64,000 bases of DNA, from assembly GCA_030636025.1 (NCBI GenBank), contig DAOVXQ010000001.1, forward strand, positions 24,791 through 88,790, read 5' to 3'. A model generated the notes under the pieces. It was given only the letters and a program-made list of their open reading frames with translations, made no database searches and was not told the origin of the DNA. Shown here in pieces: positions 6,101 to 23,415 of the stretch. Every line of letters begins with the position of its first letter. The first letter of the stretch is position 1. Source of the stretch: an archaeon. GTDB lineage: Archaea; Nanobdellota; Nanobdellia; Pacearchaeales; GW2011-AR1. The translations under genes were made by a program, and so were the position numbers.

Positions 6101-6150
6101 ATATAATTTTCCTAGCGAAGATTTATAAATCGTCTCAGATTCTCACTTAA

Positions 6151-7569: not shown

Positions 7570-7694
7570 TTTATCCAATTTAAATATAAAAATTTATAAA
7601 CCCAAAAATAAATCAGAAGAATGAGGGGGAACTAGAGGGTTTATGCTCTAACTAATAAAAAATACCTCCTTAACAGAAAAAAGAATACTTTAAA

Positions 7695-8015: not shown

Positions 8016-8135
8016 AACAATTAAAGATTTAAAAAATCTAAATGAAAAAAGAAGAATAAACCAATTTTGATCAAAGATTTAAATTATTCAATTTAAACAA
8101 AAATATTTATAAACTAAAAAATAAATTTAATTAAT

Positions 8136-8360
8136 ATGACAAACATTATAACTCTACCAAAAGAATTAGCAGAAAAATTACAAAAAAAAATAAAGGAAAC
8201 AGATTTTGCATCAATACAAGATTATGTGATTTATGCATTAAATCAATTAGTTGTTTCTGAAGAAAATAAAGAAGAGATTAGTAAGGAAGAAGAAGTAGCA
8301 TACACTCCTGAAGAAGAAGAAGAACTGAAAAAAAGATTAACAGAGCAGGGTTATATTTAG
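8136..8360 (+). CDS. Small ribbon-helix-helix-like protein, copy B, 74 aa, with an acidic C-terminus
   Basis: The N-terminal 45 aa are near-identical to copy A. Confidence 0.4.
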   Translation: MTNIITLPKELAEKLQKKIKETDFASIQDYVIYALNQLVVSEENKEEISKEEEVAYTPEEEEELKKRLTEQGYI

Positions 8361-8364
8361 ATTT

Positions 8365-8865
8365 TTAATAATTTAATGAGTTATCTTCAGATAAGTTATT
8401 TTCATTAGATTCTGATTCACTTGTTTGATTAAATTCTTTTTCATCTTCCCAAATTCTCCAATCATAACCCATATTTTTACAAGTTTCTGCAGCCAAACAA
8501 TCTAATTTTAAATCTACTCTCTCACCAATTTCTTGGCTTATAACATTTTTAGACATATTCCTAACACCATTTACAGCATGAGTGAATTTTAAAAGCTTAT
8601 CCTGAGAATCCCCTCCCTCTCTTGCCTTTGACTCATTAGCCCAGATAGTCTCATTTGATATTGAATTAACTTGGATTGCCCGTATCATCTGCCCTGTTAA
8701 TCGCACATCTTTTTCTTTAATTATCAAATCAATATCATGCATAATCTCTTGCGCCTCTTTTTCATATTCTTTTTTATGTTCGGGAATTTTAATAGATTTT
8801 AAAGTAACAATGCATAACCTATCTATCAATTCAGCAAATGTTGGCATGTATTTTCTTTCAGACAT
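8365..8865 (-). CDS. Hypothetical protein with an acidic Ser/Glu/Asn-rich C-terminal tail
   Basis: 166 aa with no motif I recognise. It is the last gene of a ten-gene minus-strand operon running to 15597, is the 3'-most gene of the operon and overlaps the gmd-like stop by 8 nt. Confidence 0.35.
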   Translation of the reverse strand: MSERKYMPTFAELIDRLCIVTLKSIKIPEHKKEYEKEAQEIMHDIDLIIKEKDVRLTGQMIRAIQVNSISNETIWANESKAREGGDSQDKLLKFTHAVNGVRNMSKNVISQEIGERVDLKLDCLAAETCKNMGYDWRIWEDEKEFNQTSESESNENNLSEDNSLNY

Positions 8866-9832
8866 TTTCTCTCCACCAGTTTAATAAATCTTGCATGGTT
8901 TGCTCAAAGCTATATTTTGGAACCCATCCTGTTTTGTTTAAGAACTTACTGCAATCAGGTATTTGTAATGTTACATCATAGGGCCGTAATAATTCTGGAT
9001 CTTCTTCTTTTTTTATATCTTTGTCACTTAAGTCAATTAGATGGTCTAACATTTCTCCTATTGTATTTGTTGTATTCCCCCCAATATTATATGCTTCTCC
9101 TGGCTCACATTTTCTAACTAATGAATGATACGCTCCTACTGCATCCCTTACATCTGCCCAAGTTCTTACACTATCGAGATTCCCATGTTTTAAGATTGGT
9201 TCTTGTTTATCTTTTTCTATTAAAGCAATTTGTTTTGCAAAATTACATTCAGCACTCATCATTGTTCTTCTTGGACCTGTATGTGTAAACATTCTTGTCC
9301 TAATTGTTTTTATTTTATAATTTGTCCAATATAAAAGTGCCACCATATCTGCTCCAACTTTCCCTACAGCATATGGATTAGACGGATTAAAAGGACAATC
9401 TTCTTTAATTGGAACTAAATCTTTTGTTACCAGCCCATAAACTTCTGAACTAGAACAGACATGCACTATTGGATCATATCCTGTTTTTTCCTTAGTCATC
9501 CTGACTGCCTCCAATAATCGTAAGGTTCCTATCGTATTTGTTTGAATTGTAATATCTGGATTTGAATAAGAATCCCCAACATAACTTTGTGCGGCTAAAT
9601 GAAAAATATAATCAGGCCTATGTTTATCAATTACTCTTAAACAAGCAGACTGGTCTAACAAATCCATAGGAACCATCTTTATTTTTCCGTCTAAGTGTTT
9701 AATTCTATTCAAATCTTCTGTCCACCTATATGTTCCTATAACTTCCTCTTCTTTTTTAACTAACAAATCCTCTAAATGACTTGCGACAAAACCTCCTGCA
9801 CCTGTAATTAAATTAGTTACCATTTTTTTCAT
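8858..9832 (-). CDS. gmd: GDP-mannose 4,6-dehydratase family (Gmd/Rmd-like) NDP-sugar dehydratase
   Basis: Rossmann motif TGAGGFVASHL. Extended SDR blocks TIGTLRLLEAVR, SSSEVYG, NPYAVGK, HTGPRR and GNLDSVRTWADVRD match Gmd (GTLRLLEA, STSELYG, SPYAVAK, HESPRRG, GNMDSLRDWGHAKD). Confidence 0.55.
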   Translation of the reverse strand: MKKMVTNLITGAGGFVASHLEDLLVKKEEEVIGTYRWTEDLNRIKHLDGKIKMVPMDLLDQSACLRVIDKHRPDYIFHLAAQSYVGDSYSNPDITIQTNTIGTLRLLEAVRMTKEKTGYDPIVHVCSSSEVYGLVTKDLVPIKEDCPFNPSNPYAVGKVGADMVALLYWTNYKIKTIRTRMFTHTGPRRTMMSAECNFAKQIALIEKDKQEPILKHGNLDSVRTWADVRDAVGAYHSLVRKCEPGEAYNIGGNTTNTIGEMLDHLIDLSDKDIKKEEDPELLRPYDVTLQIPDCSKFLNKTGWVPKYSFEQTMQDLLNWWRENV

Positions 9833-10214
9833 AAAAATTTATTAAAGTTTCTAAATCAACATTATTTATTTTAATATCATTTAGTTCGGTTTTATCTATT
9901 AGGGCAAATCCTGCCCCTTCTTTTAATGATATTTTTGAAATATCATTAATACTCGCAGTATATATTTTTATGTTTCCTTTATATTTATCTCCTAAATTAT
10001 AATTCTTAGAACCATAAAATTTTGGATTTATTGTTATTCCTGTTTCTTCAAAAATCTCTCTAACAACTGCTTCTTTAGGTTTTTCATTATTTTCTATTTC
10101 TCCTCCAAAAATTCCCCACGCTCCCCGAGTTGAGGGATAATCTAATGTTTTCTTCTGCAAAAGAACCTCATTTCTATCATTCAATATTATACATTCCACC
10201 ACATTTCTATCCAT
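9813..10214 (-). CDS. NUDIX hydrolase (GDP-sugar hydrolase Gmm/WcaH-like by context)
   Basis: Nudix box GGEIENNEKPKEAVVREIFEETGI. It is adjacent to and co-oriented with the gmd-like gene. Confidence 0.65.
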   Translation of the reverse strand: MDRNVVECIILNDRNEVLLQKKTLDYPSTRGAWGIFGGEIENNEKPKEAVVREIFEETGITINPKFYGSKNYNLGDKYKGNIKIYTASINDISKISLKEGAGFALIDKTELNDIKINNVDLETLINFYEKNGN

Positions 10215-10584
10215 TTATCACATACTCCTTATCATTTACTTCTTTTGAAATATAAGGCCATTGTGTGCATTCTATCATCACAGTATCTTCTAAAAATTTT
10301 GCCTTATGTGCAATTCTTGGCTCAATAGTTATCCTCTGACCTTTTTTTAAATTTATTTCCTGCCTTTCCTTTGTATCAATATTTTCAAAAATATATTCTG
10401 CTTCCCCATGTAATAAATAAAAAGTTTCACTATAATTGTGATAATGATTTCCAAGTATAGAACCCTCTTTTATTTTAAGTAATTTTAATTGCAAGGCAGT
10501 AAAATCCCCATTAAAAATAGGTGTCAGACTTCTTCTTTCATCTTCATGTGCTGGTTCAATTTCTTTATAATCTAATCCTTTCAT
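10207..10584 (-). CDS. Cupin-domain protein (possible NDP-keto-sugar epimerase/isomerase)
   Basis: HYHNYSETFYLLHGEA...H is a cupin two-His motif. 125 aa, lying inside the sugar operon. Confidence 0.45.
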   Translation of the reverse strand: MKGLDYKEIEPAHEDERRSLTPIFNGDFTALQLKLLKIKEGSILGNHYHNYSETFYLLHGEAEYIFENIDTKERQEINLKKGQRITIEPRIAHKAKFLEDTVMIECTQWPYISKEVNDKEYVING

Positions 10585-11138
10585 TTTAATTCTGCATATT
10601 TTTCTATTTGTGCTTTTGTTCCTCCTGTAGGCACTTCAACTAAAATTGTAGACTTATCATTATACAATGCATTTTTGTAAACAGGGATAACGTCCTCTGC
10701 CTTTCTTATTTTAATAACCTCTATGTTTTTACATATGATTTCTAAGGCATTTGTATAATCTGAACAATGTTGAATTCCAGGATATAATGGTTTTGTGTTT
10801 CCTATCTGAGTTCTCATAATCACCTTGGGATTATATTCCCCATGGCTCATTTCTTTAATTTTATCTAGGTGGTTTACTAATTGATTCATCCCACATATTA
10901 AAAAATCTATTCTTGGATAAATACTTATTGGAATATATCCCTTTAAACTTAGTCCTATTGAAATCCCCATCTGCATATCCTCTGCCACAGGCATTTCTAT
11001 TTTCTTTTCTAAAGGAACATTTTCAAGACTCATATGCATTGGACTGCCAGGATACAAAACTGTCTGACCCATAAAAATTGTTCTTTTATCTTCTGCAAGA
11101 ATTTCCATTGCTTTTTTTGTTTGTTTTTTATAATCCAT
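10581..11138 (-). CDS. Truncated TPP-enzyme E1-beta-like subunit (transketolase-like pyrimidine-binding domain only)
   Basis: MGQTVLYPGSP...PVAEDMQMGISIGLSLKGYIPI resembles E1-beta/transketolase PF02779. At 185 aa it is far shorter than canonical E1-beta (~325 aa). Confidence 0.55.
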   Translation of the reverse strand: MDYKKQTKKAMEILAEDKRTIFMGQTVLYPGSPMHMSLENVPLEKKIEMPVAEDMQMGISIGLSLKGYIPISIYPRIDFLICGMNQLVNHLDKIKEMSHGEYNPKVIMRTQIGNTKPLYPGIQHCSDYTNALEIICKNIEVIKIRKAEDVIPVYKNALYNDKSTILVEVPTGGTKAQIEKYAELK

Positions 11139-11139
11139 T

Positions 11140-11748
11140 TTAAAAATCCACCCATTTACCTATTCCATAATGGGGATATCTCCTCTCATATTCATATTTT
11201 ATTATATCTGCCCTTCCATTTTTCCAGACCTCATTTGTAGGAGTATAAACTCCAATTCCATTATCTTCGACTACAAAAGTTATTGGTAAATCTTGCCCCC
11301 CTGCATATTGCGTACATTCACTAAATGCTCCCATCTTTGAAGCCATATCTCCAACAAAACACCAAACATGCTCTCCCGAATTTTTTTGCCTTATTCCCAT
11401 TGCAGTTCCAACTGCGATAGGCAGAATCCCCCCAACAATTGCTGATGAAAATATTTTGTATTGATTGCTATTTGCATGTATGCTCCTATCTTCTAAAATT
11501 TCATTTTTTAACCACTCCGGATTTTTGCTTTTTAATAAAGCATGATAATGGCTTCTCCATGTCGAAAAAACCCAATCTTCATCTTTTACATTTTTAAAAA
11601 TTTCAATTAATTGGTCTTCATTTCCACCAGAAAGATGAATCGGACTATGTATTTTTCCAGCCTCATATAAATCCACTATTTCTTTTTCAAAATTCATCAA
11701 ATATTCTTTATCTATACTAACTTTTTCAATTAAATCTTGTTTATCCAT
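11140..11748 (-). CDS. Truncated TPP-binding E1-alpha-like subunit
   Basis: HLSGGNE, the SIHANS region (compare GGSMH) and CFVGDMASKMGAFSE...VVEDNGIG (the GDG...N TPP-binding motif). 202 aa against ~330 aa for canonical E1-alpha. Confidence 0.6.
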   Translation of the reverse strand: MDKQDLIEKVSIDKEYLMNFEKEIVDLYEAGKIHSPIHLSGGNEDQLIEIFKNVKDEDWVFSTWRSHYHALLKSKNPEWLKNEILEDRSIHANSNQYKIFSSAIVGGILPIAVGTAMGIRQKNSGEHVWCFVGDMASKMGAFSECTQYAGGQDLPITFVVEDNGIGVYTPTNEVWKNGRADIIKYEYERRYPHYGIGKWVDF

Positions 11749-11757
11749 TTTTATTAA

Positions 11758-12714
11758 TTATTTTATATTTTTTTGATACCAATTCATTGTTTTTCTTATT
11801 CCTTCTTCTAAACTAACTTTGGGTGTCCATCCAAAATCATTTTTAGCTTTAGTGCAATCAAAACATAAACTCGTTTTTATTGTCGGTTTTGAAGTATCAT
11901 ATTCTATATTAATATTCTTGCCTGAAATGTCAATCATTTTTTTAACAAGATTACTAACAGAAACAGCTTCTCCAGAACCAACATTATATAACTCATAACC
12001 TGTTTGTTGATCATCTACAGCCATACTAACAAAATCAACTAAGTCATCAATATACAAAAAATCTCTTTTTTCTTTTCCATCTCCCCAAACAACTAATTTT
12101 TCATTTTTATTATTCATAACTTTAGTAATTGTTGCTCCAAAAACATGAGATTTTTCTAAGTCAAATTTATCATAAGGCCCATAAACATTTGCCTGCCTTA
12201 TTACAGTATGTTTGGTTTTTCCTAATCTTGAAAAAAATTCACACATCTTTTCAATATAAATTTTAGTATGTCCAACCCCAAAATAATTTGGAAGAAGTTC
12301 CTGGTTGGGATTAAAATCAGTCTCCTTTAAAGGTTTTTCACTTGGTTGATACATCACAGTAGAACTTGGAAAAATAAAATGTTCAACATTATTATCAAAT
12401 GCAGACCTTAATAATAATGAGTTCATTACCGCATTATCTGTTACATGGATATAAGGTTTTGTAACAATATCTTTTGAACCAGAAGTTGTAGAAGCATCTT
12501 GGATAATTATATTTTTTCCAGCAACAATCCCTTGAACATCTTTAGAATCAAGAAGATTTGCATGAACCATCTCAACATTATCTATTTTTGGAGGTTTAGA
12601 TTTAAAATAAGTCCCAGTAACTTCAAAATTTTCTCTTTTTCCAAATCTTTCTGCAACATTTCTGCCAATAAATCCTGTTGCACCACAAACTAAAACCTTT
12701 TTTTTACTATTCAT
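11758..12714 (-). CDS. NAD-dependent epimerase/dehydratase (GDP-fucose-synthase/UDP-Glc-4-epimerase-like SDR)
   Basis: VLVCGATGFIGRNV Rossmann motif; extended SDR, 318 aa. Confidence 0.65.
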   Translation of the reverse strand: MNSKKKVLVCGATGFIGRNVAERFGKRENFEVTGTYFKSKPPKIDNVEMVHANLLDSKDVQGIVAGKNIIIQDASTTSGSKDIVTKPYIHVTDNAVMNSLLLRSAFDNNVEHFIFPSSTVMYQPSEKPLKETDFNPNQELLPNYFGVGHTKIYIEKMCEFFSRLGKTKHTVIRQANVYGPYDKFDLEKSHVFGATITKVMNNKNEKLVVWGDGKEKRDFLYIDDLVDFVSMAVDDQQTGYELYNVGSGEAVSVSNLVKKMIDISGKNINIEYDTSKPTIKTSLCFDCTKAKNDFGWTPKVSLEEGIRKTMNWYQKNIK

Positions 12715-14186
12715 TTTTTATCTCCAAGAAGTTTTCTTTTAAGATTAATTTTTGTCATCTCTTCTAAATGGGTCCTGCCCTCTTTTCCAAATTTATCTTC
12801 AATTAGTTTAAGATATCTCGGATTTTTATAGTAAGTATCAAAAGCATAATCTCTAAATTCAAGAACTTCTGCAGGACTAAGATTATCTGTTGGAAGAGGT
12901 AAAAAATTATAACCATGCTGAGAAAAATCAACCCACCTTTTAGGTAGTTCTATTCCTTGTTTAACAGAATTATCATAAAGAGGAGACCCCGGATAAGCAG
13001 TAGTGCAATACATTGTTTGCCATTCACAATTTAATTCCATTGCAAAATTAAGATTCCTTTGCATACTATCATAATTATCTCCAGGCAAACCAAACATACA
13101 GTGTCCAATAATATTTATCCCCTCATCTTTTGTTTGTTGAACCACTCGCCGTATATCTTCTTTTGTAAATTGACCTTTATTAACTTTCGCCCTGCTTTTA
13201 TCATCTCCTGTTTCTGTTCCATAAGCAAGCCAATTGAAACCTGCCTTTTTTAATTTACTTAAATATTCTTTCTTAGTTGTATCTATTCTTCCATAAGACC
13301 AGATATTTAAATCATAATTTCTTTCTATAAGCCCCTCTGCAATAGGAACAAAATGGTTTGGATTAATAATAAATAATTCATCAATAATTTTTAAATTTTT
13401 TACATCGTATTTATTTACTAAAGTATCTATTTGATCAAGAACCCATTCTGGTTTCCAATTTCTTTGTTTTCTTTCACCAAAGGTAGACCAAATTGCACAA
13501 AAATCACATGAAAAAGGACAACCCAAACTTGTAGAAATAGAAGCATAATTTGCTCTGGAATCAAAGTTTCCTAAACATTGCCAGTTGTGTGCCAAATATT
13601 TATCCATTGGTAAAAGATTCCAGGAAACTTCTCCTAACTCTTGTGTTAAGTTTTCAATATTCTTTGGTCTGGGATTTCCCCTTATTTCTTGGTTGTCTCT
13701 CCACCAAAGTCCAGGTATCTTTTTCAATGGTGCTTTTTCTAATAATCCTTGTAATGTAAGAAATCCTTCTCCTTGTCCAACATAATCACATACTTCTTCA
13801 TCCATAGTTCTTCTTGGAAGAGCAGAAGGATGCAATCCTGTAAGAATAACTTTTGTTTTAGGTGCTTCTTCCTTAATCTTTGTGCAAAGTTCACCAACCG
13901 CAGTCATTAATTGTGTTGATGCAGCGGGTTGTTGACCATATACTATGATATTAGTTAATTTAGGATTTATTAACAAAATCTTTTCAGCTGTTTCAGTATG
14001 TGTAAGATTTTCAGCATTTGCATCAATAATATTCACTCCAAAACCTTTTTTTTTAATAAATCCTGCAGTTAATGCTGCCCAAAAAGGAGGTTCAATTGCA
14101 GAATATGTTTTGCTTAAATCTTGATAAACATCTTTTTTAATTCCCCCACCAACATTTACAAGGGTTAAATCTATCTGTCTATTCAT
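12711..14186 (-). CDS. B12-binding-domain radical SAM enzyme (class B)
   Basis: N-terminal B12-binding-like domain followed by SLGCPFSCDFC (CxxxCxxC). 491 aa. Confidence 0.7.
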   Translation of the reverse strand: MNRQIDLTLVNVGGGIKKDVYQDLSKTYSAIEPPFWAALTAGFIKKKGFGVNIIDANAENLTHTETAEKILLINPKLTNIIVYGQQPAASTQLMTAVGELCTKIKEEAPKTKVILTGLHPSALPRRTMDEEVCDYVGQGEGFLTLQGLLEKAPLKKIPGLWWRDNQEIRGNPRPKNIENLTQELGEVSWNLLPMDKYLAHNWQCLGNFDSRANYASISTSLGCPFSCDFCAIWSTFGERKQRNWKPEWVLDQIDTLVNKYDVKNLKIIDELFIINPNHFVPIAEGLIERNYDLNIWSYGRIDTTKKEYLSKLKKAGFNWLAYGTETGDDKSRAKVNKGQFTKEDIRRVVQQTKDEGINIIGHCMFGLPGDNYDSMQRNLNFAMELNCEWQTMYCTTAYPGSPLYDNSVKQGIELPKRWVDFSQHGYNFLPLPTDNLSPAEVLEFRDYAFDTYYKNPRYLKLIEDKFGKEGRTHLEEMTKINLKRKLLGDKK

Positions 14187-14281
14187 TTTATTATCCCTTT
14201 TTTAATATAATTCATAATCATTTTTAATAATTCTTATTTTTAAAGATTTAGTAGTTTAAAAATATAGTATTCCTATATTAG

Positions 14282-14905
14282 TTAAAAACTTTTACTTTCT
14301 CCTCCATCTACAGTAATGCATGAACCATTAATGTGTTTGGCCTTATTTGAACATAAAAAAGTAACTATTCCTGCAACATCTTCTGGCTTTCCTTTTCCAG
14401 AGTAATTTTTTGTTCCAATATCTATTGGTCCTGGTGCTATAGTATTAAAAGTAATTCCTTCATATTTCCCAGCAAGGCATTTCATTAAACTTATTTCTGC
14501 AGCTTTAGCCATATTAAACCAGGGTTTTCCTCCAGATTCTTTTCCATAAATAGAAGCGATAGTAATTACTCTCCCCCATTTTTGCTTTTTCATATAGGGA
14601 AGACATTTCATAGTTAGTTTTCTGGCAACTCCTGCATTTTTTTCATAAACTTCTTCCCATTCATCAAATTTTTCATAATTTTCACTTCCCCATCTTCCAC
14701 CACCTCCAACATTGTTTATTAAAATATCATAGTTTCCATTAATCTTGGTTAAATCATCTTTTAAAACATCTACTATAATTCCTTTAGTTCTTGAACAAAT
14801 ATCAACTAAGCACCCCTCTTTTTTTAGTTCTTCTGCTATTGCTTTTCCAATTCCCTTGCTTCCACCAGTAACAAGCGCATATTTTCCTTCAAGATTTAAT
14901 TCCAT
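14282..14905 (-). CDS. Short-chain dehydrogenase/reductase (classical SDR)
   Basis: ALVTGGSKGIGKAIA glycine-rich motif. 207 aa. Confidence 0.7.
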   Translation of the reverse strand: MELNLEGKYALVTGGSKGIGKAIAEELKKEGCLVDICSRTKGIIVDVLKDDLTKINGNYDILINNVGGGGRWGSENYEKFDEWEEVYEKNAGVARKLTMKCLPYMKKQKWGRVITIASIYGKESGGKPWFNMAKAAEISLMKCLAGKYEGITFNTIAPGPIDIGTKNYSGKGKPEDVAGIVTFLCSNKAKHINGSCITVDGGESKSF

Positions 14906-15597
14906 TTTTTTAAATCATATTTATTTAAATCAAGAGGTTTAGGGGTACAGTATAAAATCCCCCGATAAGTAAGTCGAGGGGTTGAATGAGCATACATTAT
15001 ATTATCCAAGGTTTCGGTATCAGAAGATAATCCTTTTATACTTTTAACATCCCTCTCTTCTATTATGTCGCAGGTTGCCAATTCATTTGTATAAAAATTA
15101 AAATTAGGATTCACTTTTTTTAAAAGACCCCCAACAACATTCATTCCAAGGGGCTCTCCATCATAATTACAATGTCCTAGTCCATTATCAAAATCATGTA
15201 TGCAGACTACACAATTTTCAAAACCCTCTAATGATTTTAATTCTCCTTGAACCACCCATTTATCTTCTTTTGGTAATAAAGGATCATAAAAATGTGCATC
15301 TAAATACATAAACACAGTATCTTTTCTTCCAGTTTTTTTATAATTCTTAATAAAATCTTTTAAAAACTTTGGACTAGACTTTTTTTCAATAAATACATTA
15401 TTTAACTTTTTGATTTTTTCCATAGCTATCTTTAAATATTCCTCTTTTATATCACAAGACAGCACATCTTTAAAATTATGAGAATGAAATTTAGCATTTA
15501 TCCCCATAAATGCTCCTGTTTCAATAAATGTAGAAATATTAAATTCATCTCTTAATTTAATTATTTGCTTAATTGCCGTTCTGTCTAACCAACACAT
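14896..15597 (-). CDS. Putative class I SAM-dependent methyltransferase (CmcI/TylF/FkbM-like)
   Basis: FIETGAFMGINA resembles the methyltransferase motif I. 233 aa. The call is weak. Confidence 0.35.
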   Translation of the reverse strand: MCWLDRTAIKQIIKLRDEFNISTFIETGAFMGINAKFHSHNFKDVLSCDIKEEYLKIAMEKIKKLNNVFIEKKSSPKFLKDFIKNYKKTGRKDTVFMYLDAHFYDPLLPKEDKWVVQGELKSLEGFENCVVCIHDFDNGLGHCNYDGEPLGMNVVGGLLKKVNPNFNFYTNELATCDIIEERDVKSIKGLSSDTETLDNIMYAHSTPRLTYRGILYCTPKPLDLNKYDLKKWN

Positions 15598-15715
15598 AAG
15601 AAATTGTTGTAGAGATCATTTTTAAGTTTTTATATAGTTAAAAAGAATAGTAATCCTACTTATTTGTTAAATTAAAAATACATAATTTTTATAAGGCAAA
15701 AAAAACTAAATATCT
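15598..15715. promoter_or_regulatory. Divergent intergenic region with TATA-like boxes (tttttatatag; aatttttataagg) serving the minus-strand sugar operon and the plus-strand GT gene
   Basis: 118-bp AT-rich spacer between divergently oriented genes. The boxes are recognised only by archaeal TATA consensus resemblance. Confidence 0.25.
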
Positions 15716-17395
15716 ATGTCAAAACAGAACAGAAAACCCAAACCAAAAACACCTAAAATAAACAAAATACTTTTTGCAGAAACAGAAAATAAATATTTTT
15801 TTCTTTATCATCATTGGTATCTCCCATTAAAAAAAAGATGTAATAAGTTAATTTCATTTGATTGGAGATATAATCTCCTTATATATGGAAAAAAGGAAAT
15901 GAATAAAAGATTTCTTAAGATTATAGAAAAAGAAAAACCAGATTATGTTTTTTCATGGGCAAGGGGAGATGACACAGAACTTGAAATGTTATTAAAAATA
16001 AGAGAAATTTCTCCAAAAACAAAAACAATTCTTTTTTCAGGTGATGAAGACACGACTTTTGAAACTTTTTCAAGATATTTTATATTATTCTATGATTACG
16101 GACTAATATCTCCAAACCCTGAAAAATATATCCCAAAATATAATAAAGATGGAATAAAAAATATTTTCCCAATCATTGGAGCATTAAACACAGATTTTTT
16201 TAAACCAATAAATACTAAAAAAAAATATGATGTTACATTCATTGGTGCTTCGAGAGGAAAATTATCTAAAAGATATGAATATATTAAATTTTTAAAAGAT
16301 AATGGAATAAAAATAAAAGTATTTGGGTGGGGTTGGGACAAATATCCTAAATTAAAAGAGATTTATGGGGGCCCCTTAGAATCAGAAGAATTAGTAAAAG
16401 TCCTAAATCAAAGTAAGATAAGTTTATGTTTTTCAAAAGATGATTTTGGGAAAACAGAAGTAAAAGGAAAGCATTTTGAAACAGCAGCATGCAAAACATT
16501 TAGTTTAACAGAGTATTCTAAGGGATATTTAAAATATTTTAAGCAAAAAAAAGAGATTATTCTGTTTAAAGATAAAGAAGATTTATTAAAAAAAATAAAA
16601 TATTATCTTAAGCACAAAAAAGAAAGAGAAAGAATTGCAGAAGTAGCTTATAAAAAAATTATTAAAAATTATAATTTAGATATAGATTTAAAGAAGCTTT
16701 TTAAGGTGCAATCAAAAAAAGATTTTACTCATAAAAAACTTCCAAAAATAAATAAAAAAATTACCTCTTTATCTAAAAATGACTTAAATTTAAGTTTAGA
16801 AAAACTTAAAAACAAATTAAAAAATAAAGATTATATTATTTTAACGGATAGAAAATGTAAAAACCTCCCTTATAGAAAATATTTGCAGGCCTATTCCTTA
16901 GAAAAAACAAGAAAACCAATGAGTTGTTGTAATTATTATGTCCACTCTAAAATTTTAGGAGATTATCTGTATTTTATTACAAAAGATGCCTTTAAAAATC
17001 TCAATAAAGAAAATTTTAGTTCATTTTTAAATATAAATCAGTTTATGGTAACTAAAGATTATCTTTTAAACAATTTACAAAATTTTAAGAAAATTTTAAA
17101 TGGAAAAAAAATAGATTTTATAACTGAAAAAAATACTGCAATAATCGCCCTCCCATTGATAAGAATTAATAAAACTAAGATTAAAGATTATGAAACTATG
17201 AAAAAAGCATTTATTTTTTATTTTTTGTATAAATTATTTTCTTTAAAAATAAGAAAAAAGCCCGCCCTATTCTATTATATTTTTGCACTTTCCTTAGAAA
17301 TTCTTAGGGGAAAAAGATTTATCTTAGGGGCATTAATGAAAATATTAAAAGATAAGGATAAAAAAAATAAATTAAATAGTTATAAGAAAAAATAA
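15716..17395 (+). CDS. CgeB-like/GT1-fold glycosyltransferase with a C-terminal extension
   Basis: ISLCFSKDDFG...KHFETAACKTFSLTE...EDLLKKIKYYLKHKKERERIAEVAYKK matches the CgeB/Glyco_trans_1 C-terminal region. Confidence 0.45.
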   Translation: MSKQNRKPKPKTPKINKILFAETENKYFFLYHHWYLPLKKRCNKLISFDWRYNLLIYGKKEMNKRFLKIIEKEKPDYVFSWARGDDTELEMLLKIREISPKTKTILFSGDEDTTFETFSRYFILFYDYGLISPNPEKYIPKYNKDGIKNIFPIIGALNTDFFKPINTKKKYDVTFIGASRGKLSKRYEYIKFLKDNGIKIKVFGWGWDKYPKLKEIYGGPLESEELVKVLNQSKISLCFSKDDFGKTEVKGKHFETAACKTFSLTEYSKGYLKYFKQKKEIILFKDKEDLLKKIKYYLKHKKERERIAEVAYKKIIKNYNLDIDLKKLFKVQSKKDFTHKKLPKINKKITSLSKNDLNLSLEKLKNKLKNKDYIILTDRKCKNLPYRKYLQAYSLEKTRKPMSCCNYYVHSKILGDYLYFITKDAFKNLNKENFSSFLNINQFMVTKDYLLNNLQNFKKILNGKKIDFITEKNTAIIALPLIRINKTKIKDYETMKKAFIFYFLYKLFSLKIRKKPALFYYIFALSLEILRGKRFILGALMKILKDKDKKNKLNSYKKK

Positions 17396-18557
17396 TTTTA
17401 TTTTTTTGATGTTTTAAATTTACAATTTTTTTATAAAAATCCTCTAATTTTTTTATATTTTTACTCAATCTAAATTTTTCCTGAGCTTTTTTAACATTTT
17501 GTTGTAATTTTTCATAATTCTGTTGTTGAATAATTTTCTTAAGATTTTTTAAGTCAGAATAATCTATCAAAATACCAATTTTATTCTCTTTCACAATATC
17601 TGACATAACCTCACTCTGTCTATTTATAATTGTAGGCAATCCTGCCTCAATATAATTAAACATTTTCCCGGCCATAGATGTTTTAGGCCATATGGGATTT
17701 ATTATTGTGGCATCATAAAAATCAGGAAATATACCATAATTATATTTTGAAATTTTTTTGTTTAATTCTTCTGGTTTTTCCCTTTTATGAAAATGAAAAT
17801 ATTTATTTATTTTTTCTTCATTAAAAAACAAATTATTGTCCTTTTCCTGAACACAAGGACCATATGTATGGAAATGAATTTTTTGCGAGGTAACAGTTTT
17901 TACAATTTTTATAAATGGAATTCTACCTTCTTCAGAAGTTAAAGGCCCTCCAGGATAAATTACATGTAATTCTTTTTTTCTTTTTCCCCTTTTCGGAGGA
18001 TAAATCCATTCATCTAAACAATCTGGAGTGATTGCTAAATCTGGAACCCCTATTTTATATCTTAAAAAATTAAGTTCTCCAGAGGGACCTTTATGTAAAA
18101 CACCGTGAGCTTTTTTAAAAGATATTTTTTCAAAAATTTTCTGAAAAATCTTTTTCATCCTAAAACCTCCCGTGGTTCCTGTAGAAAATTCCCAGATATC
18201 ATAAGCAAAATATATTTTCGGCCTTTCTTTTTTTATTAAAAACATAAAAATCATAGTAAATAAATCCGGACCAGTAATATGAAAAACATAAGGATTTAAC
18301 TTCCTAATTTTCTTTAAAAAAATCCTGGCTTCTTTACTCGAAATTTTTTTAAAAAATTGAATTATCTTTTTTGGATGTATTTTATGCTCCAATTCAAAAA
18401 TAAGAATTTTATCAAATGCTTTTTTATAAAGATTTTCATCAACTTTAGAGAATGAAATAAGTGTTGTTTTATATTTCCCAGTTAATTTTAGGGCTCGTGC
18501 AAATTTTAAATTGACTATGCTTGGAACACGTTCCACAAAAACTATTTCTTTCTTCAT
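17319..18557 (-). CDS. Glycosyltransferase (GT1/GT4-fold-like)
   Basis: The C-terminal YIEAGLPTIINRQSEVMSDIVKENKIGILID is the GT-B donor-binding motif region. The start is uncertain. The gene converges on and overlaps the previous gene. Confidence 0.4.
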   Translation of the reverse strand: MKKEIVFVERVPSIVNLKFARALKLTGKYKTTLISFSKVDENLYKKAFDKILIFELEHKIHPKKIIQFFKKISSKEARIFLKKIRKLNPYVFHITGPDLFTMIFMFLIKKERPKIYFAYDIWEFSTGTTGGFRMKKIFQKIFEKISFKKAHGVLHKGPSGELNFLRYKIGVPDLAITPDCLDEWIYPPKRGKRKKELHVIYPGGPLTSEEGRIPFIKIVKTVTSQKIHFHTYGPCVQEKDNNLFFNEEKINKYFHFHKREKPEELNKKISKYNYGIFPDFYDATIINPIWPKTSMAGKMFNYIEAGLPTIINRQSEVMSDIVKENKIGILIDYSDLKNLKKIIQQQNYEKLQQNVKKAQEKFRLSKNIKKLEDFYKKIVNLKHQKNKIIFSYNYLIYFFYPYLLIFSLMPLR

Positions 18558-19465
18558 TTTACATCTCTTATTTCTACAAGGGTTGTTCCTAATTCTTCTT
18601 TATTATTTGTTTTAACCTTTACATCGCAAGGATGACATTCCCCATATTTATTACAATGCCTAAAAATATCTTCTATTTGAAAAGAAGAGTTTAATAAGTT
18701 CCCCACAGGATTTTCACTCAATAATAAATCTCTTTGACATTTATAAACCTCCCCACAAGGATTAATCAAAAGATTTGAAGTTTTGCACATACACTCTAAA
18801 TTTTTTTCACTAGAAACAGCTTCAGGATATCTAGAAGAATTTCCATGAGTTATTGCAAATTCTCTATCCAGATTGTCTTTTCCTCCATAAACACCAATAA
18901 ATGATTTTGGCCTAAAACTAATCTCTTCTTTTTTACATCTTAGTGCCATCCTTTCTAAAGATTCTAATTGAGCAGGGGAAGGATACATTATACATTCTAT
19001 TCCTATATCAAAACCTGCTTTTTTTAGTTTACTTGTATTTTCTACTAATTTTTCTCCTTCACCCATTTGTTCTGGGTGATAACTAACTCTAATTGATGGA
19101 AAAGGCGAATGATTATTTATTCTTTCTGGAGAAACTTTTTCAATAAAATTATTAATTTTAACTTTATTCCACCAAAGATTTGTAACAATGTCGATTCCCA
19201 ATTCTGGTTTAATGTTATTGATTATATAGATAAAATCTTTATGTAATGATGGCTCTCCTCCAACTAAAGACATAGGGATTTCTTTTGGAGCTTCAATTCT
19301 ATTTATTGCTCTCACCCATTGTTCTCCAGAAATTTCATTGAATTTATCTCTGTAAAAATTATTACTTGACGCCTTATTAACACAAAAACTGCAATTAAGA
19401 TTGCACCGAAAAGTAAGAAATGCAGACATATAATTATATGATTTGGGCAATGTGATTTTTCCCAT
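18554..19465 (-). CDS. Radical SAM enzyme with a C-terminal SPASM/twitch-like Cys-rich domain
   Basis: FRCNLNCSFC (CxxxCxxC) near the N-terminus. The C-terminus reads NPCGEVYKC...GNLLNSSFQIEDIF..C....C.PC. Confidence 0.6.
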   Translation of the reverse strand: MGKITLPKSYNYMSAFLTFRCNLNCSFCVNKASSNNFYRDKFNEISGEQWVRAINRIEAPKEIPMSLVGGEPSLHKDFIYIINNIKPELGIDIVTNLWWNKVKINNFIEKVSPERINNHSPFPSIRVSYHPEQMGEGEKLVENTSKLKKAGFDIGIECIMYPSPAQLESLERMALRCKKEEISFRPKSFIGVYGGKDNLDREFAITHGNSSRYPEAVSSEKNLECMCKTSNLLINPCGEVYKCQRDLLLSENPVGNLLNSSFQIEDIFRHCNKYGECHPCDVKVKTNNKEELGTTLVEIRDVK

Positions 19466-19466
19466 T

Positions 19467-20522
19467 TTAAGTAAAATTATCGTGAGGCAAAGGATATTTT
19501 ATTCTATGAAGATATCTATTTCCGGCATCACACCTGCATCCAGCCCTACAATTTTCAACCCCCTTTTCTCTTAATTTTTGTAATACTTCTTTTCTTTTAT
19601 CTCCTTCCCAAATTTCATTAAAAGAATTTTCATAAAGGTTTCCATAGGCAAATTCTGTATTTTCATAGAATAAATTACAAGGGAGAACATTTCCTTTTGA
19701 ATCAATCAAACTTATAAAGGGTAGACCATAGCATTCTGGGTAAGTAGTTTCTTCTTGTATTCTTTCCATAGTTGCTTCTCTAAATAAAACTTTAAAATCA
19801 TTATTTGAATACTTAGTCACAAGAGGTTTTAATTTATTATAGTCATCAGGATTAACAATCAAATCATTTTTACTTAATGGATGGTGAGAATAAGGTTTTA
19901 TAACTAAATAATCTGGTTTTATTTTACTTAATTTTCTTGTTAATTCTTCTGCAGTGTCTAAACTCTGAGGGATAACAAGAAATTGAGTCCCAATTGTAGC
20001 TTCTAATCCTTTTTCTTTTTTTAAATTAACAGATTCTTTTATATTATTCATTAATTTATCAAAATCTTGTTTTTTTGTTCCATGAGATTTAGAATAAACT
20101 TCTGAGTTTCCTGCATCTACACTAAATTTAACCCAAGAAAGATATGGAAGAATTTTTTCTCTTTTATCTTTATTAAAAAAAACTCCATTACTTGTTAAAG
20201 CTACATCCATTCCATATTCTTTTGACTTTTGAATAAATGTGGTTATGTCTTTATGTAGTAAGGGTTCTCCTTCCCCTCCAAACATAACAGACCTAATTTC
20301 ATGTTTTGCCATATCTTCCAGGGCATTTAACATTACATTAGAATCGATATCTGTTTTATGTTCAACCCAGTCTAATGCACAGAAAACACATTTTTGATTG
20401 CATCTGGCGGTTGCTCCAATCTCAATAGTTATCGGATAACAATCTCCAGTTTTATCCCATTGATTTACTTTATCTGGATGAAGATAAATTTTATGTCCAT
20501 CAATATCAGTTTTTGCCTTCAT
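19467..20522 (-). CDS. Radical SAM/SPASM-domain enzyme, paralog of the 22252-23376 gene
   Basis: ARCNQKCVFC. The C-terminus has PCNLF...GNLYENSFNEIWEG...C..GC.C, a SPASM-type motif. Confidence 0.6.
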   Translation of the reverse strand: MKAKTDIDGHKIYLHPDKVNQWDKTGDCYPITIEIGATARCNQKCVFCALDWVEHKTDIDSNVMLNALEDMAKHEIRSVMFGGEGEPLLHKDITTFIQKSKEYGMDVALTSNGVFFNKDKREKILPYLSWVKFSVDAGNSEVYSKSHGTKKQDFDKLMNNIKESVNLKKEKGLEATIGTQFLVIPQSLDTAEELTRKLSKIKPDYLVIKPYSHHPLSKNDLIVNPDDYNKLKPLVTKYSNNDFKVLFREATMERIQEETTYPECYGLPFISLIDSKGNVLPCNLFYENTEFAYGNLYENSFNEIWEGDKRKEVLQKLREKGVENCRAGCRCDAGNRYLHRIKYPLPHDNFT

Positions 20523-20620
20523 TTTTAATTAGTTTATAATAAATTTTTCTAACTTACCTTTTTTTATATAAGCACCATAAGCAAATGATTTAAAAAGATT
20601 ATGAAATTAAGATACATGTT

Positions 20621-21124
20621 TTAAGAAAAAATTTTTTCCTTATTGTAATTTATAAACTCTTTAACAAAATCACTTAAATTTATGTTTCTTAATTCATCTA
20701 ATCTAAAATAGCCTGCTTTTTGGCCCTCTGTTATTTTTTTATTTATATGATCTATATTCTCAAGTATCCTGCCTTTGAAAAATTGGATTTCTTCCAAAGG
20801 ACCTTTAATTCTTTTTAATTCATATGGGCCATTTATCCAGTAGTTAGCTATCCTCAAATTTCTTATTTCAACAAATCCTTTTCCTATCTGTTTTATAGAT
20901 TTAATTAGACAGCCAGGCAATTCTTCATCCAGTTCCCTTTCAATTCCTGCAAAAATATTTTCTCCTTTTTCTATGCCCCCTCCAAATAAATCCCAAGTCC
21001 CAGGTTCAATTACTTTAGGTTTATTGTCTCTTAATTGAAGTAGAAATTGGTTTTTGTTATTTAGTAATATTATTTTAGCTACATTTTTCATTTTACTCTT
21101 TGTCATATAAATCTCTCCTTTCAA
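20621..21124 (-). CDS. NUDIX hydrolase
   Basis: GGGIEKGENIFAGIERELDEELPG Nudix box. Confidence 0.6.
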   Translation of the reverse strand: MKGEIYMTKSKMKNVAKIILLNNKNQFLLQLRDNKPKVIEPGTWDLFGGGIEKGENIFAGIERELDEELPGCLIKSIKQIGKGFVEIRNLRIANYWINGPYELKRIKGPLEEIQFFKGRILENIDHINKKITEGQKAGYFRLDELRNINLSDFVKEFINYNKEKIFS

Positions 21125-21617
21125 TAATCATACAAGGTTCTTTAAATTTTTTTGCATACTCATAGGAATGTTTTAATTCATAAGTATTTTTAGGATCATA
21201 AACTGGAAAATTAAATCTTGCTTTAAAAAAATCTGAAAAATCTTGTGAATGTTGTGGTCCGGGATTAATTGGATTCATTGAGCCTATTACTGCCCTTATT
21301 ATCATTGGGGCATTATATTGTTGATTTGATAAAATAGGCAATTTATCTAAATAATTAACTAAGGAATCTAAAGCATTTAACATAAAATCATGCCTCTCAA
21401 AAATTAAAACAGGTTTAAATCCTTCTATAGCCATCCCAGTTGCTAAACCTGTCATTAAATTTTCTGCCACAGGGGATTCTAAAATTTTTGATTTTGGAAT
21501 ATCTTTTAATGAACCATATCCTTTTGAACCATGTTTTAGATTATATCCAATAAAAATTGCTTTTTCGTCCTTAGCTATTTCTTCCATCGAATTTTTTATA
21601 ATATCTTTATATTTCAT
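21093..21617 (-). CDS. Truncated E1-beta-like TPP-enzyme subunit, paralog of 10581-11138
   Basis: ESPVAENLMTGLATGMAIEGFKPVL. 174 aa. Confidence 0.55.
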   Translation of the reverse strand: MKYKDIIKNSMEEIAKDEKAIFIGYNLKHGSKGYGSLKDIPKSKILESPVAENLMTGLATGMAIEGFKPVLIFERHDFMLNALDSLVNYLDKLPILSNQQYNAPMIIRAVIGSMNPINPGPQHSQDFSDFFKARFNFPVYDPKNTYELKHSYEYAKKFKEPCMIIERRDLYDKE

Positions 21618-22241
21618 TTACATTGTACTCCCTATTTTACCTTTTGAAAAATTAACAAATTTATCTGTTCCTGCATGAAGTGTTGTTGGATTATAGTGGT
21701 ATCTTCTTACACAAGATGGCCAATTTATCTGACAAGTTCCATATCTTTCAATTTTAGTGGTTTCAACAGACCTATCATTATCCTCAATAATAAATGTGCA
21801 GGGAAGATTATGTCCTTCAACATATCTTACTGCTTCATAAAAATGCCCCTCATCCTCTGCACCATCTCCTACAAAACACCAAACTTTACTTTCACTTTTC
21901 TTTCTTTTTAATGCCCAAGCAATTCCTGTTGCAACTGCAGGAGTTCCAGCAACAATTGCAGAAGAAAGAAAGTTTATGGCTTTATTATGGGGATGCATAC
22001 TTTCTCCTTTTAATATCTTTTCTTCTAATTCTTTTGGAGACCCTCCTTTTAATAAATAATGATAATGTGAACGATGTGTAGAAAAAACATAATCTTCTGG
22101 TTGAATTTCTTTAAATATTTCTATTAATTGATTTTCATTACCTCCAGAAAGGTGAATATAATAAGGTATTTTTGCATCTTCCCATAATGTTTTTATATGT
22201 TTTTCAAAATCGATTAATTCTTGTTTAGTGACGTGTTCCAT
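21618..22241 (-). CDS. Truncated E1-alpha-like TPP-binding subunit, paralog of 11140-11748
   Basis: HLSGGNENQLIEIF, ESMHPH (compare GGSMH), CFVGDGAEDEGHFYEA...IIEDNDRS. Confidence 0.6.
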   Translation of the reverse strand: MEHVTKQELIDFEKHIKTLWEDAKIPYYIHLSGGNENQLIEIFKEIQPEDYVFSTHRSHYHYLLKGGSPKELEEKILKGESMHPHNKAINFLSSAIVAGTPAVATGIAWALKRKKSESKVWCFVGDGAEDEGHFYEAVRYVEGHNLPCTFIIEDNDRSVETTKIERYGTCQINWPSCVRRYHYNPTTLHAGTDKFVNFSKGKIGSTM

Positions 22242-22251
22242 TTTTATATTT

Positions 22252-23376
22252 TTAGATAAAATTAATGTGTTGAGGGGGTTTGCCCTCAGGTTTTGTTATG
22301 TTTAAATTATTTTCTTTTATGTCCCAAAGATATTCATTAACTTTATGTTGAAGGCAAAGGGTTCCACACATTTTTTTTGCATCAAATTTAGATGAAGAAA
22401 TTAAATCCATAACTTTATCATATCTTTTACTTTGCCAAATATCTTTAAAAGAATTTTCAGCGATATTTCCAATGTGATATTTTTTATATTTATCATTAAA
22501 TAACATCCCACAAGGAGCAACTAATCCAGAACCAGACATTTGCAATATAAATCGAGGACCATAGCATTTAGAATATTTTCTTTCCCCTCCACTCATTATT
22601 TTAGACCATTTTGCTTTAACAAGATAATCTTTTGTAGAATTAGATTCTGCTACCTGTAATATCTCCTTAAGTTCATAATATTTATTATAATCAATACCCA
22701 AGGTCCCATCTTCATCATCGCTACAATGTTTAATAACTAAATAATCTACTTTTAACTCTTTTCCTAAATTAACAAGAGGGATTATTTGATCTTTAAATTC
22801 TGGCATTAGGACCATTTGTAATCCTATTGTTGTCTCTAATTTTTTCTCTTTTTTTAATTTTGTAGTTTCTTTTACAATGTTTTTAAATTTATAAAAATCA
22901 TTTTCCCTACAACCATGAATTTCTTTATATCTTTGTGGCTCCCCGGCAGAAACATTAAACCTTAAATAAGTAAGTGCAGGAAGAATCTCCTCTAATTTTT
23001 CTTTTTTTAAAAGAACCCCATTTGTTCCTAATGCCATATCAAGCCCATTTTTTTTACCATGAATTATTGCATCATAAAGATAAGGAGAACAAGTACTTTC
23101 ACCATCACTAACAAAACTTATTGCTTTTACACCAATCTCTGCAACATCATCTAAAAATCTAAAAATTACATCCCTAGTCATTCTTTTTTCATCATTTGCC
23201 TGTAATTGCCCATAACAATAAACACATTTATAATTGCATTTTCGGGTTAATGCACAATCAATTGTTATTGGGGCTATTTTTTCTCCTTTTAACCAAGCAT
23301 TAACCCTATCTGAATGCCAGGCTAATTTTTGCCCATCTAATATTAATCCTTTTTCTTGTTCAAATTTATTTTCCAT
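22252..23376 (-). CDS. Radical SAM/SPASM-domain enzyme
   Basis: TRKCNYKCVYC. The C-terminus has PCGMLF...GNIAENSFKDIW...C..LC. Confidence 0.6.
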   Translation of the reverse strand: MENKFEQEKGLILDGQKLAWHSDRVNAWLKGEKIAPITIDCALTRKCNYKCVYCYGQLQANDEKRMTRDVIFRFLDDVAEIGVKAISFVSDGESTCSPYLYDAIIHGKKNGLDMALGTNGVLLKKEKLEEILPALTYLRFNVSAGEPQRYKEIHGCRENDFYKFKNIVKETTKLKKEKKLETTIGLQMVLMPEFKDQIIPLVNLGKELKVDYLVIKHCSDDEDGTLGIDYNKYYELKEILQVAESNSTKDYLVKAKWSKIMSGGERKYSKCYGPRFILQMSGSGLVAPCGMLFNDKYKKYHIGNIAENSFKDIWQSKRYDKVMDLISSSKFDAKKMCGTLCLQHKVNEYLWDIKENNLNITKPEGKPPQHINFI

Positions 23377-23415
23377 AGATTTTCCTATTCATTTTTATTT
23401 TTAAAGATTATTGAG

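Follow-up and report, generated by a model that had tools for sequence, protein, structure and literature searches.

E1-type enzymes decarboxylate 2-oxo acids, which generates an acyl-anion equivalent on thiamine diphosphate (ThDP). In antibiotic pathways of actinomycetes, homologs of the E1 alpha and beta subunits transfer a pyruvate-derived two-carbon (C2) unit onto C3/C4 keto-sugars, a step that is often followed by ketoreduction (PMC12247030; PMC4753412; PMC4425429). These include AviB1/AviB2 (avilamycin), Pau11/Pau12 (paulomycin), the aldgamycin and kosinostatin enzymes and KbDH-alpha/beta (kibdelomycin) (PMC12247030; PMC4425429; PMC4753412). KbDH-alpha/beta couple pyruvate with ketones in vitro (PMC12247030; PMC4753412; PMC4425429), and Pau11 and Pau12 are 325 and 345 amino acids (aa) long, respectively (PMC4425429). 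Here, we analysed a window of 64,000 nt (the whole stretch examined) from the archaeon GW2011-AR1 (Pacearchaeales; assembly GCA_030636025.1, contig DAOVXQ010000001.1, positions 24,791-88,790) that encodes two pairs of short E1-like subunits, called mini-E1 hereafter. As a first-pass annotation had indicated, Pfam and NCBIfam profiles show that these subunits are about half-length, alpha lacking its C-terminal part and beta lacking PF02780.

The AviB kind of sugar-branching enzymes, already put forward as the closest precedent, remains so, though its members are full length. Like AviB, Pau11/Pau12 and KbDH, the mini-E1 pair sits in a sugar-tailoring cluster without E2 and E3 components. Furthermore, one of the two loci (module A) shows the same 4,6-dehydratase, cupin and short-chain dehydrogenase/reductase (SDR) context, whereas the other one (module B) has no dehydratase. 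Unlike these enzymes, mini-E1 subunits (202-207 aa for alpha and 174-185 aa for beta) have no PF02780 and form a long-branched clade of their own. DPANN archaea, diverse bacteria and phages encode them in loci for the envelope or N-glycans, outside secondary metabolism. In addition, one of their lineages (clade B) is coupled with radical S-adenosylmethionine (SAM) enzymes carrying a SPASM domain and with GT9 glycosyltransferases, which has no counterpart in the antibiotic pathways. The best reading of the sequences is that mini-E1 would be a truncated variant of the AviB/Pau11-12 kind.

Other ThDP enzymes share some of these features. Heterotetrameric E1, i.e. those of pyruvate (PDH), branched-chain 2-oxo acid (BCKDH) and acetoin dehydrogenases, give the best sequence and fold match, and their cofactor residues are kept in mini-E1. 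However, their alpha subunit is complete (~320-370 aa), whereas mini-E1 lacks the alpha C-terminal half, the E2-binding domain (PF02780, the beta C-terminal domain, binds E2) and nearby E2/E3 genes. Carboligases of the YerE type make yersiniose and related branched sugars of lipopolysaccharides (LPS). They share with mini-E1 the proposed chemistry (addition of an acyl anion onto a nucleoside diphosphate (NDP)-keto-sugar) and the surface-glycan niche, but they are single chains of ~580 aa with TPP_enzyme_N/M/C domains and belong to another ThDP superfamily (decarboxylase/acetolactate synthase). Sulfopyruvate/phosphonopyruvate decarboxylases of the ComD/ComE type consist, as mini-E1, of a bare pyrimidine-binding (PYR) and a bare diphosphate-binding (PP) subunit that are sometimes fused, but they differ by their TPP_enzyme_N/C lineage and their pathway context. 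In the literature, we found nothing on the mini-E1 family or on its association with radical SAM and GT9 enzymes; this agrees with the initial statement that no characterised system matches mini-E1 with radical SAM in a glycan island.

The four subunit genes are the following:
10581-11138, minus strand: mini-E1 betaA, 185 aa (Transket_pyr 3.8e-4; PDH E1-beta NF006667 1.9e-10; Glu of PVAE and QH motif kept)
11140-11748, minus strand: mini-E1 alphaA, 202 aa (E1_dh positions 5-171 of 300, E-value 5.1e-16)
21093-21617, minus strand: mini-E1 betaB, 174 aa (Transket_pyr 4.3e-12, no PF02780)
21618-22241, minus strand: mini-E1 alphaB, 207 aa (E1_dh positions 6-170 of 300, E-value 7.9e-20; PDH_E1_alph_y 2e-26)

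The first-pass annotation had placed these genes in two four-gene cassettes. All the open reading frames (ORFs) that it named were found again at the same positions on the minus strand, and Pfam and NCBIfam upheld the family assignments of all cassette ORFs. The match of alpha ends at position ~170 of the 300 of the E1_dh profile: the C-terminal ~40% is gone and only the PP domain (ThDP/diphosphate-binding) is left, while beta is a PYR domain only. The residues that bind the cofactor are preserved. The Mg/ThDP motif reads GDGAEDEG...EDN in alphaB and GDMASKMG...EDN in alphaA, with Asp and Asn retained, and D126, N155 and the diphosphate-contact motif R57/H59 are invariant in 52 alpha sequences. 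Alpha ends with a family-specific C-terminal tail that has invariant Y183, H189, G191 and F198. betaB aligns to residues ~6-177 of E1-beta and keeps the cofactor-activating Glu (PVAE) and the His of QHSQ; E52 and H123 are invariant in 50 beta homologs.

AlphaFold2 models of alphaB and betaB are confident (pLDDT of 88.8 and 94.8, respectively). All the top 50 Foldseek matches of alphaB are E1-alpha chains (E-values down to 4e-11), with a TM-score of ~0.7 relative to the query (TMq) and ~0.40 relative to the target (TMt), the fold spanning merely ~40% of the E1-alpha target. betaB superimposes on the PYR domain of E1-beta with a TMq of 0.88 and a root-mean-square deviation of 2.2 Å, compared with ~0.73 for 1-deoxy-D-xylulose-5-phosphate synthase (DXS) and 0.68 for split transketolase, whose structure 6yaj ranks 47th among the fold matches of betaB. 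Profiles give a similar picture: NCBIfam transketolase matches are at 4.7e-7 versus 2e-26 for PDH E1-alpha, and no TK_C domain was found. Moreover, TPP_enzyme_C matches of alpha are weak (7e-5, 1.9e-3) and beta has no TPP_enzyme_N match. Alpha also shows secondary matches to DXP_synthase_N. Thus, split transketolase, which had been considered initially as another possible family, is outscored by E1 profiles and folds; judged by profile and predicted fold, alpha and beta belong to the E1 lineage rather than to transketolases.

The half-size architecture is widely conserved. Database searches with alphaB gave 1772 homologs; the 120 best all measure 204-249 aa (64-83% identity). Among the 120 best of the 354 homologs of betaB, 119 measure 154-204 aa, and PF02779 is present in at least 114. 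An exhaustive profile search yielded 153 clusters (50% identity, E<1e-30), the complete members of which are mostly 195-265 aa long, and a further 2057 matches at E<1e-10 that include canonical E1. The plasmid search gave distant matches only (at most 37% identity), the annotated ones being ordinary E1 components. The alphaB stop codon immediately precedes the betaB start in the same frame and, since the alpha and beta genes abut in a packed operon, there is no hidden remnant of the lost domains. Neither the Pfam-scanned ORFs of the window, nor the precomputed contig annotation, nor those conserved neighbour clusters that were annotated include E2 or E3. Altogether, these sequences point to real and apparently functional minimal E1-type ThDP proteins.

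The two pairs are paralogous, as proposed by the first-pass annotation: pairwise alignments give 44% identity between alphaA and alphaB (E-value 3e-54) and 37% between betaA and betaB (1e-33). In a neighbour-joining tree built on distances (without support values), a long branch separates all mini-alphas from a full-length E1-alpha of a glycan locus, with which they share only 27% identity. Mini-alphas split into clade A, which includes alphaA (nearest relative at 60%), and clade B, which includes alphaB (nearest relative at 80%), with a group of fused proteins beside clade B. Since they fall in separate deep clades and each has closer orthologs in other phyla (60% and 80% versus 44%), the two pairs are ancient paralogs and do not derive from a local duplication. 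Alpha-beta fusions arose independently inside clade A (L073) and on the branch next to clade B. Archaeal and bacterial sequences are interleaved in the tree. The window itself is archaeal since it encodes ribosomal proteins L32e and S4e, and the closest homologs of alphaB and betaB carry Pacearchaeota or Nanoarchaeota labels. Hence, the view of an archaeal system holds for the glycan island considered here but not for the family, which also occurs in Desulfobacterales, Phycisphaerae, Omnitrophota, Parcubacteria, Pelagibacteraceae, Prochlorococcus and phages.

One glycan locus of an uncultured bacterium (L010, 2858-4735 and 10001-11171) encodes a mini pair along with a full-length E1 pair that has Transketolase_C and measures 310 and 312 aa, which suggests that the two architectures are not interchangeable. 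Three mini-alpha homologs (P0147, P0189 and P0122) carry inteins (Hint or LAGLIDADG) or, for P0122, an N-terminal APH-type kinase domain.

Neighbourhoods were compared across 15 genome and 80 metagenome loci, several look-ups and three phage records; 77 non-redundant loci carry a mini-alpha. Counts rely on our own ORF calling and on BLAST/HMM clustering, class counts being limited to loci flanked by 6 kb or more, and seeding the scans with two peptide patterns biases the sample. Alpha and beta are fused (389-421 aa) in 22 of the 77 loci. Beta lies immediately downstream of alpha in 27 others and no more than 5 kb away in a further 10, the rest being mostly truncated contigs. Pfam confirmed E1_dh and Transket_pyr in three fused representatives of ~400 aa. 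The alpha-beta pairing is essentially obligate and is the sole constant across related loci.

This modifies the initial picture of two paralogous cassettes with the order NUDIX-beta-alpha-radical SAM. The alpha/beta pair is conserved across loci but the NUDIX/radical SAM association is not, NUDIX being beside the pair in 2 of the 77. In the window, alpha/beta alone is duplicated, and the two radical SAMs differ in class (B12 versus SPASM). The duplicated four-gene cassette is ruled out by the neighbourhood counts and the tree. The two NUDIX proteins resemble each other in their Nudix-box half alone (39% over 57 aa, E-value 2e-8) and are perhaps local accessories acting as NDP-sugar hydrolases. 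The other partners depend on the class of mini-alpha, as shown by their occurrence in clade A, clade B and fused loci, respectively:
SPASM radical SAM: 0/14, 15/18, 2/17
Radical SAM of the 303-aa type: 0/14, 7/18, 0/17
B12 radical SAM: 3/14, 8/18, 2/17
GT9: 0/14, 6/18, 1/17
PfkB or HldE-like kinase: 0/14, 4/18, 11/17
DegT aminotransferase: 1/14, 4/18, 1/17
NUDIX: 0/14, 2/18, 0/17
4,6-dehydratase or extended SDR: 12/14, 4/18, 8/17
RmlC 3,5-epimerase: 8/14, 0/18, 0/17
Unknown 432-aa protein (unk432): 7/14, 0/18, 0/17
Homolog of the window protein 8365-8865: 5/14, 0/18, 0/17
Zinc-dependent alcohol dehydrogenase (Zn-ADH): 0/14, 1/18, 14/17
Cupin (119 aa): 0/14, 0/18, 7/17
CTP_transf-like: 0/14, 0/18, 5/17

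In addition, a GHMP kinase is encoded by 3 of the 14 clade-A loci. Four archaeal clade-B loci encode an HldE-like nucleotidyltransferase/PfkB protein, and most of them also SDRs and DegT aminotransferases. In a metagenome-assembled genome of Desulfobacterales (L004, 5863-15731), the clade-B module comprises a GT2, three radical SAMs, alpha, beta and two unknown proteins, and is located immediately upstream of lptC-lptA-lptB-rpoN (LPS transport locus).

The conserved units of the window extend beyond the cassettes initially delimited, module A spanning ~8365-15597 and module B 17319-24393. Both are densely packed, with overlapping or abutting genes. Besides betaA and alphaA, module A comprises:
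8365-8865, minus strand: unknown 166-aa protein, last gene of the module
8858-9832, minus strand: NDP-hexose 4,6-dehydratase, GMD/RmlB-like, 324 aa (GDP_Man_Dehyd 1.7e-70)
9813-10214, minus strand: NUDIX hydrolase A, 133 aa, complete Nudix box (NUDIX 1.8e-14), accessory
10207-10584, minus strand: WbuC-like cupin, 125 aa (Cupin_2/TIGR04366)
11758-12714, minus strand: extended SDR, 318 aa, GDP-fucose-synthase-like (Epimerase 1.3e-38; GDPFucSynFcl 1.8e-39)
12711-14186, minus strand: radical SAM with a B12-binding domain, 491 aa (best NCBIfam match HpnJ, 1.6e-42)
14282-15597, minus strand: classical SDR of 207 aa and unknown 233-aa protein, head of the packed gene run

The dehydratase matches the dTDP-glucose 4,6-dehydratase profile at 2.8e-45 and that of GMD at 1e-39, has clade-A homologs with 42-52% identity and probably supplies a 4-keto-6-deoxy sugar to the module. 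The cupin occupies the slot of the RmlC-type 3,5-epimerase of other clade-A loci. The extended SDR, whose type is present in 12 of the 14 clade-A loci, is a candidate ketoreductase or epimerase acting downstream of the ThDP step. The nearest relatives of the B12 radical SAM, HpnJ and the AprD4 diol-dehydratase (top PDB match, 6fd2, 4.5e-13), both act on sugars, and its orthologs lie beside alpha in L007 (42%), L011 (36%) and L073 (62%). The 166-aa protein, whose clade-A homologs share 48-52% identity, has no Pfam, NCBIfam or PDB match; it is not a detached alpha C-terminus since it shows no similarity to full-length E1-alpha. The genes in 14282-15597 are weakly conserved elsewhere, homologs of the 207-aa SDR being found in L012 and L092. 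The 233-aa protein (14896-15597, minus strand) is, unlike the 166-aa protein, not conserved with clade-A mini-E1 loci. Neither of these two proteins could be assigned to a family, and PDB sequence searches with them were empty or non-significant.

Besides betaB and alphaB, module B comprises:
17319-18557, minus strand: glycosyltransferase, 412 aa, Gtf3_C/GT1-like, last gene of the module (homologs in L001, L002, L020, L022 and L030)
18554-19465, minus strand: third radical SAM, 303 aa (Radical_SAM 1.6e-9)
19467-20522, minus strand: second SPASM radical SAM, 351 aa, paralog of 22252-23376 (33% identity, E-value 4e-50)
20621-21124, minus strand: NUDIX hydrolase B, 167 aa (NUDIX 1.2e-8), accessory and not core
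22252-23376, minus strand: SPASM radical SAM, 374 aa (Radical_SAM and SPASM), conserved clade-B partner
23416-24393, minus strand: GT9 (heptosyltransferase-family) glycosyltransferase (Glyco_transf_9 1.9e-12), first gene of the module

The radical SAMs 19467-20522 and 18554-19465 had both been missed by the first-pass annotation. Orthologs of the former (44-59% identity) are found in L002-5, L016, L020, L022 and L023; the latter has no SPASM or B12 domain detectable by Pfam. Orthologs of the 374-aa SPASM protein (54-72%) lie beside the pair in L002, L004, L005, L014, L016, L017, L022, L023 and L030. This protein scores under all curated NCBIfam cutoffs and its top PDB match is just MoaA (5e-5). 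An external gene call gives an ATG start to NUDIX B (20621-21106, 161 aa) and 320 aa to GT9 (23416-24378). NUDIX B orthologs adjoin the alpha/beta pair in L002 and L014 only, and none is present in the closest relative of the module, L020. Module B has no 4,6-dehydratase, and tblastn searches of the window with PfkB, HldE-like, CTP_transf, Zn-ADH, RmlC, GHMP kinase and unk432 sequences gave no match.

In L020 (Ga0315281_10001597, 7077-12117), whose alpha is 80% identical to alphaB, three consecutive in-frame fusions are encoded: GT9-alpha (528 aa), beta-SPASM (559 aa) and a class I methyltransferase fused to a protein resembling the 351-aa SPASM radical SAM (603 aa). They hint at a physical linkage between GT9, alpha, beta and SPASM proteins, but, coming from a single contig, they are suggestive only. 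Phages also carry the system. An uncultured 735-kb jumbo phage (L102, LR756501, 7391-9609) has the gene order beta, SPASM radical SAM, alpha. Furthermore, the cultured cyanophages P-TIM68 (L100, KM359505, 167767-168912) and S-SM2 (L101, GU071095, 149421-150629) encode a 402-aa alpha-beta fusion, annotated 'transketolase central region-containing protein'. Its gene has a Zn-ADH gene on one side and that of a carbohydrate kinase on the other, and epimerase, nucleotidyltransferase, 'phosphoheptose isomerase' and glycosyltransferase genes lie nearby. The fusion is part of the 'LPS gene clusters' of cyanophages, to which no definite function was assigned (PMC3037559).

The archaeal glycan-island setting given by the first-pass annotation was confirmed. 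Besides a flippase, a DegT aminotransferase, a PMT-type transferase and numerous glycosyltransferases and methyltransferases, the island encodes:
35837-36853: AglH-like GT4
36896-39694: AglB/STT3

A 559-aa glycosyltransferase on the plus strand (15716-17395) stands between the two modules; it is convergent with the minus-strand glycosyltransferase 17319-18557, their 3' ends overlapping by 77 nt. The island also encodes a third ThDP enzyme (30010-31773, minus strand, 587 aa), which is a full-length protein of the acetolactate-synthase/YerE type with TPP_enzyme_N/M/C domains (acolac_lg 2e-126, under cutoff). Its gene is located directly upstream of an SDR epimerase gene (29075-30013, minus strand), and its product is plausibly a YerE-like sugar-branching enzyme rather than that of an amino-acid biosynthesis gene. 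At 2673-4649, an NTP-transferase is fused to an iPGM-type phosphomutase/metalloenzyme domain in a protein of 658 aa. The next gene (4646-6100) encodes a fourth-class B12 radical SAM, and both are flanked by phosphodiesterase/sulfatase-family genes (1153-2532 and 6151-7569). The region 1153-7569 may be a separate module for the decoration of a head group or a phospho-sugar.

We give an even chance to a function of mini-E1 as a ThDP carboligase that adds a pyruvate-derived C2 unit to keto-sugars. In this proposal, which builds on the observed architecture, conservation, fold, pairing and partners, the C2 donor, the acceptor, the order of the steps and the radical SAM roles are tentatively assigned as follows. 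The alpha/beta pair would be a minimal heteromeric ThDP enzyme made of one PP and one PYR domain, stripped of the portions dedicated to the dehydrogenase complex, i.e. the E2-binding domain of beta and the C-terminal half of alpha with its regulatory loops. Pyruvate would be decarboxylated to hydroxyethyl-ThDP, and the C2 unit then transferred to the carbonyl of a nucleotide-activated or already-transferred sugar. The product, destined for the envelope or the N-glycan, would be a sugar with an acetyl branch or an extended chain. The missing C-terminal wall of alpha would plausibly open the active site to bulky sugar acceptors. For module A, the acceptor would be an NDP-4-keto-6-deoxyhexose made by the neighbouring dehydratase (8858-9832); the cupin may then act as an epimerase/isomerase, the SDR 11758-12714 as a reductase and the B12 radical SAM in a further sugar step. 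The precedent of sugar branching, with C2 transfer followed by ketoreduction, parallels the presence of the SDR in module A and of Zn-ADH in the fused class. For module B, the pair, the two SPASM radical SAMs, the third radical SAM and GT9 would act on a heptose-type sugar. Radical SAM dehydrogenases are able to generate carbonyls; those of module B may either make the carbonyl acceptor or remodel the adduct.

Several points weigh against this proposal. The activity of every member of the family is predicted from sequence, fold and gene context. In canonical E1, the C-terminal half of alpha holds a catalytic His and a wall of the active site, and with its loss the chemistry may differ, although the conserved alpha tail (Y183, H189, G191, F198) could substitute for it. 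The ThDP site across subunits is putative since the models are those of single alpha and beta chains. For module B, the carbonyl acceptor is hypothetical because no 4,6-dehydratase is encoded there, and tblastn detected no PfkB, HldE or nucleotidyltransferase partner for this module in the window. An action at the sugar-phosphate stage would be equally compatible with the kinases and nucleotidyltransferases that accompany the fused class and some clade-B loci. Moreover, the GT9-alpha and beta-SPASM fusions are known from one metagenomic contig.

An extension of this proposal, which we find tentative and somewhat unlikely as a whole, is that clade-B mini-E1 works in a complex with SPASM radical SAMs and GT9 to build a new branched or higher-carbon envelope sugar derived from heptose, the mini-E1 family being unrecognised yet widespread and used by phages to remodel host or virion glycans. 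Such a complex would combine polar C-C bond formation on ThDP with radical chemistry, possibly on an already-transferred sugar.

We consider a second explanation unlikely but worth weighing. Mini-E1 could act like DXS or transketolase, before nucleotide activation, with pyruvate or a ketose providing the C2 unit that is joined to an aldose or aldose phosphate. The resulting unusual (deoxy)ketose or higher-carbon sugar phosphate would be isomerised, phosphorylated, nucleotidylated and finally transferred by GT9. This is consistent with the partners of the fused class, namely PfkB kinase (11/17), CTP_transf-like proteins, cupin/'phosphoheptose isomerase' and Zn-ADH, with the HldE-like kinase/nucleotidyltransferase of four clade-B loci and with the fusion of an APH-type kinase to alpha in P0122. 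Furthermore, alpha has secondary DXP_synthase_N matches and DXS is the second-best fold for beta. However, E1 profiles and folds clearly outscore those of DXS and transketolase, and clade A goes with NDP-ketosugar enzymes and without PfkB (though with GHMP kinase in 3 of 14 loci). The window search that gave no kinase or nucleotidyltransferase partner also argues against this explanation, and where such genes occur they may just supply NDP-heptose for a later action of mini-E1.

It is improbable that the pair is a simple 2-oxo acid decarboxylase of the sulfopyruvate/phosphonopyruvate type that provides an aldehyde for a phosphonate or sulfonate head group. The two-subunit layout, PP-only and PYR-only, is identical, PhpK-type P-methyltransferases are among the secondary matches of the module-A B12 radical SAM, and the island contains phosphodiesterase/sulfatase-family genes. 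Nevertheless, the weak TPP_enzyme_C matches of alpha and the lack of TPP_enzyme_N in beta place the pair outside the ThDP lineage of these decarboxylases. The Pfam-scanned genes of the window and the annotated neighbour clusters include neither PEP mutase nor sulfopyruvate-pathway genes, and the partners are consistently sugar-nucleotide enzymes and glycosyltransferases.

Lastly, although automated pipelines label the homologs 'pyruvate dehydrogenase E1 component' or 'transketolase central region-containing protein', we reject as having almost no chance the idea, raised in part by the first-pass annotation, that the short genes are decayed fragments of a housekeeping pyruvate/acetoin dehydrogenase E1 or a housekeeping split transketolase, since lengths are conserved across two domains of life and phages, catalytic motifs are invariant, natural fusions exist, the packed operon leaves no room for remnants, the scanned ORFs of the window include no E2/E3, and transketolase scores are far weaker in both profiles and folds.

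If C2 addition to keto-sugars by mini-E1 is correct, this family would comprise the smallest known E1-lineage ThDP enzyme, with ~380 residues in total, split or fused. It would separate the parts of E1 needed for cofactor chemistry from those that serve the dehydrogenase complex, and would provide a compact new carboligase scaffold for biocatalysis. The association of a clade-B ThDP enzyme with two or three radical SAMs and a GT9 is without characterised counterpart. The interest of the family also lies in its size and its spread across archaea, bacteria and phages. It marks a sugar-modification pathway in organisms that are either highly abundant or little understood (DPANN archaea, bacteria of candidate phyla, SAR11 and Prochlorococcus, together with their phages) and in which surface glycans govern phage susceptibility and host-symbiont contact. 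What the 'LPS gene clusters' of cyanophages do has been asked since 2010, a question that mini-E1 may answer, and the copies of cultured cyanophages (S-SM2 and P-TIM68) make the function of mini-E1 directly testable.

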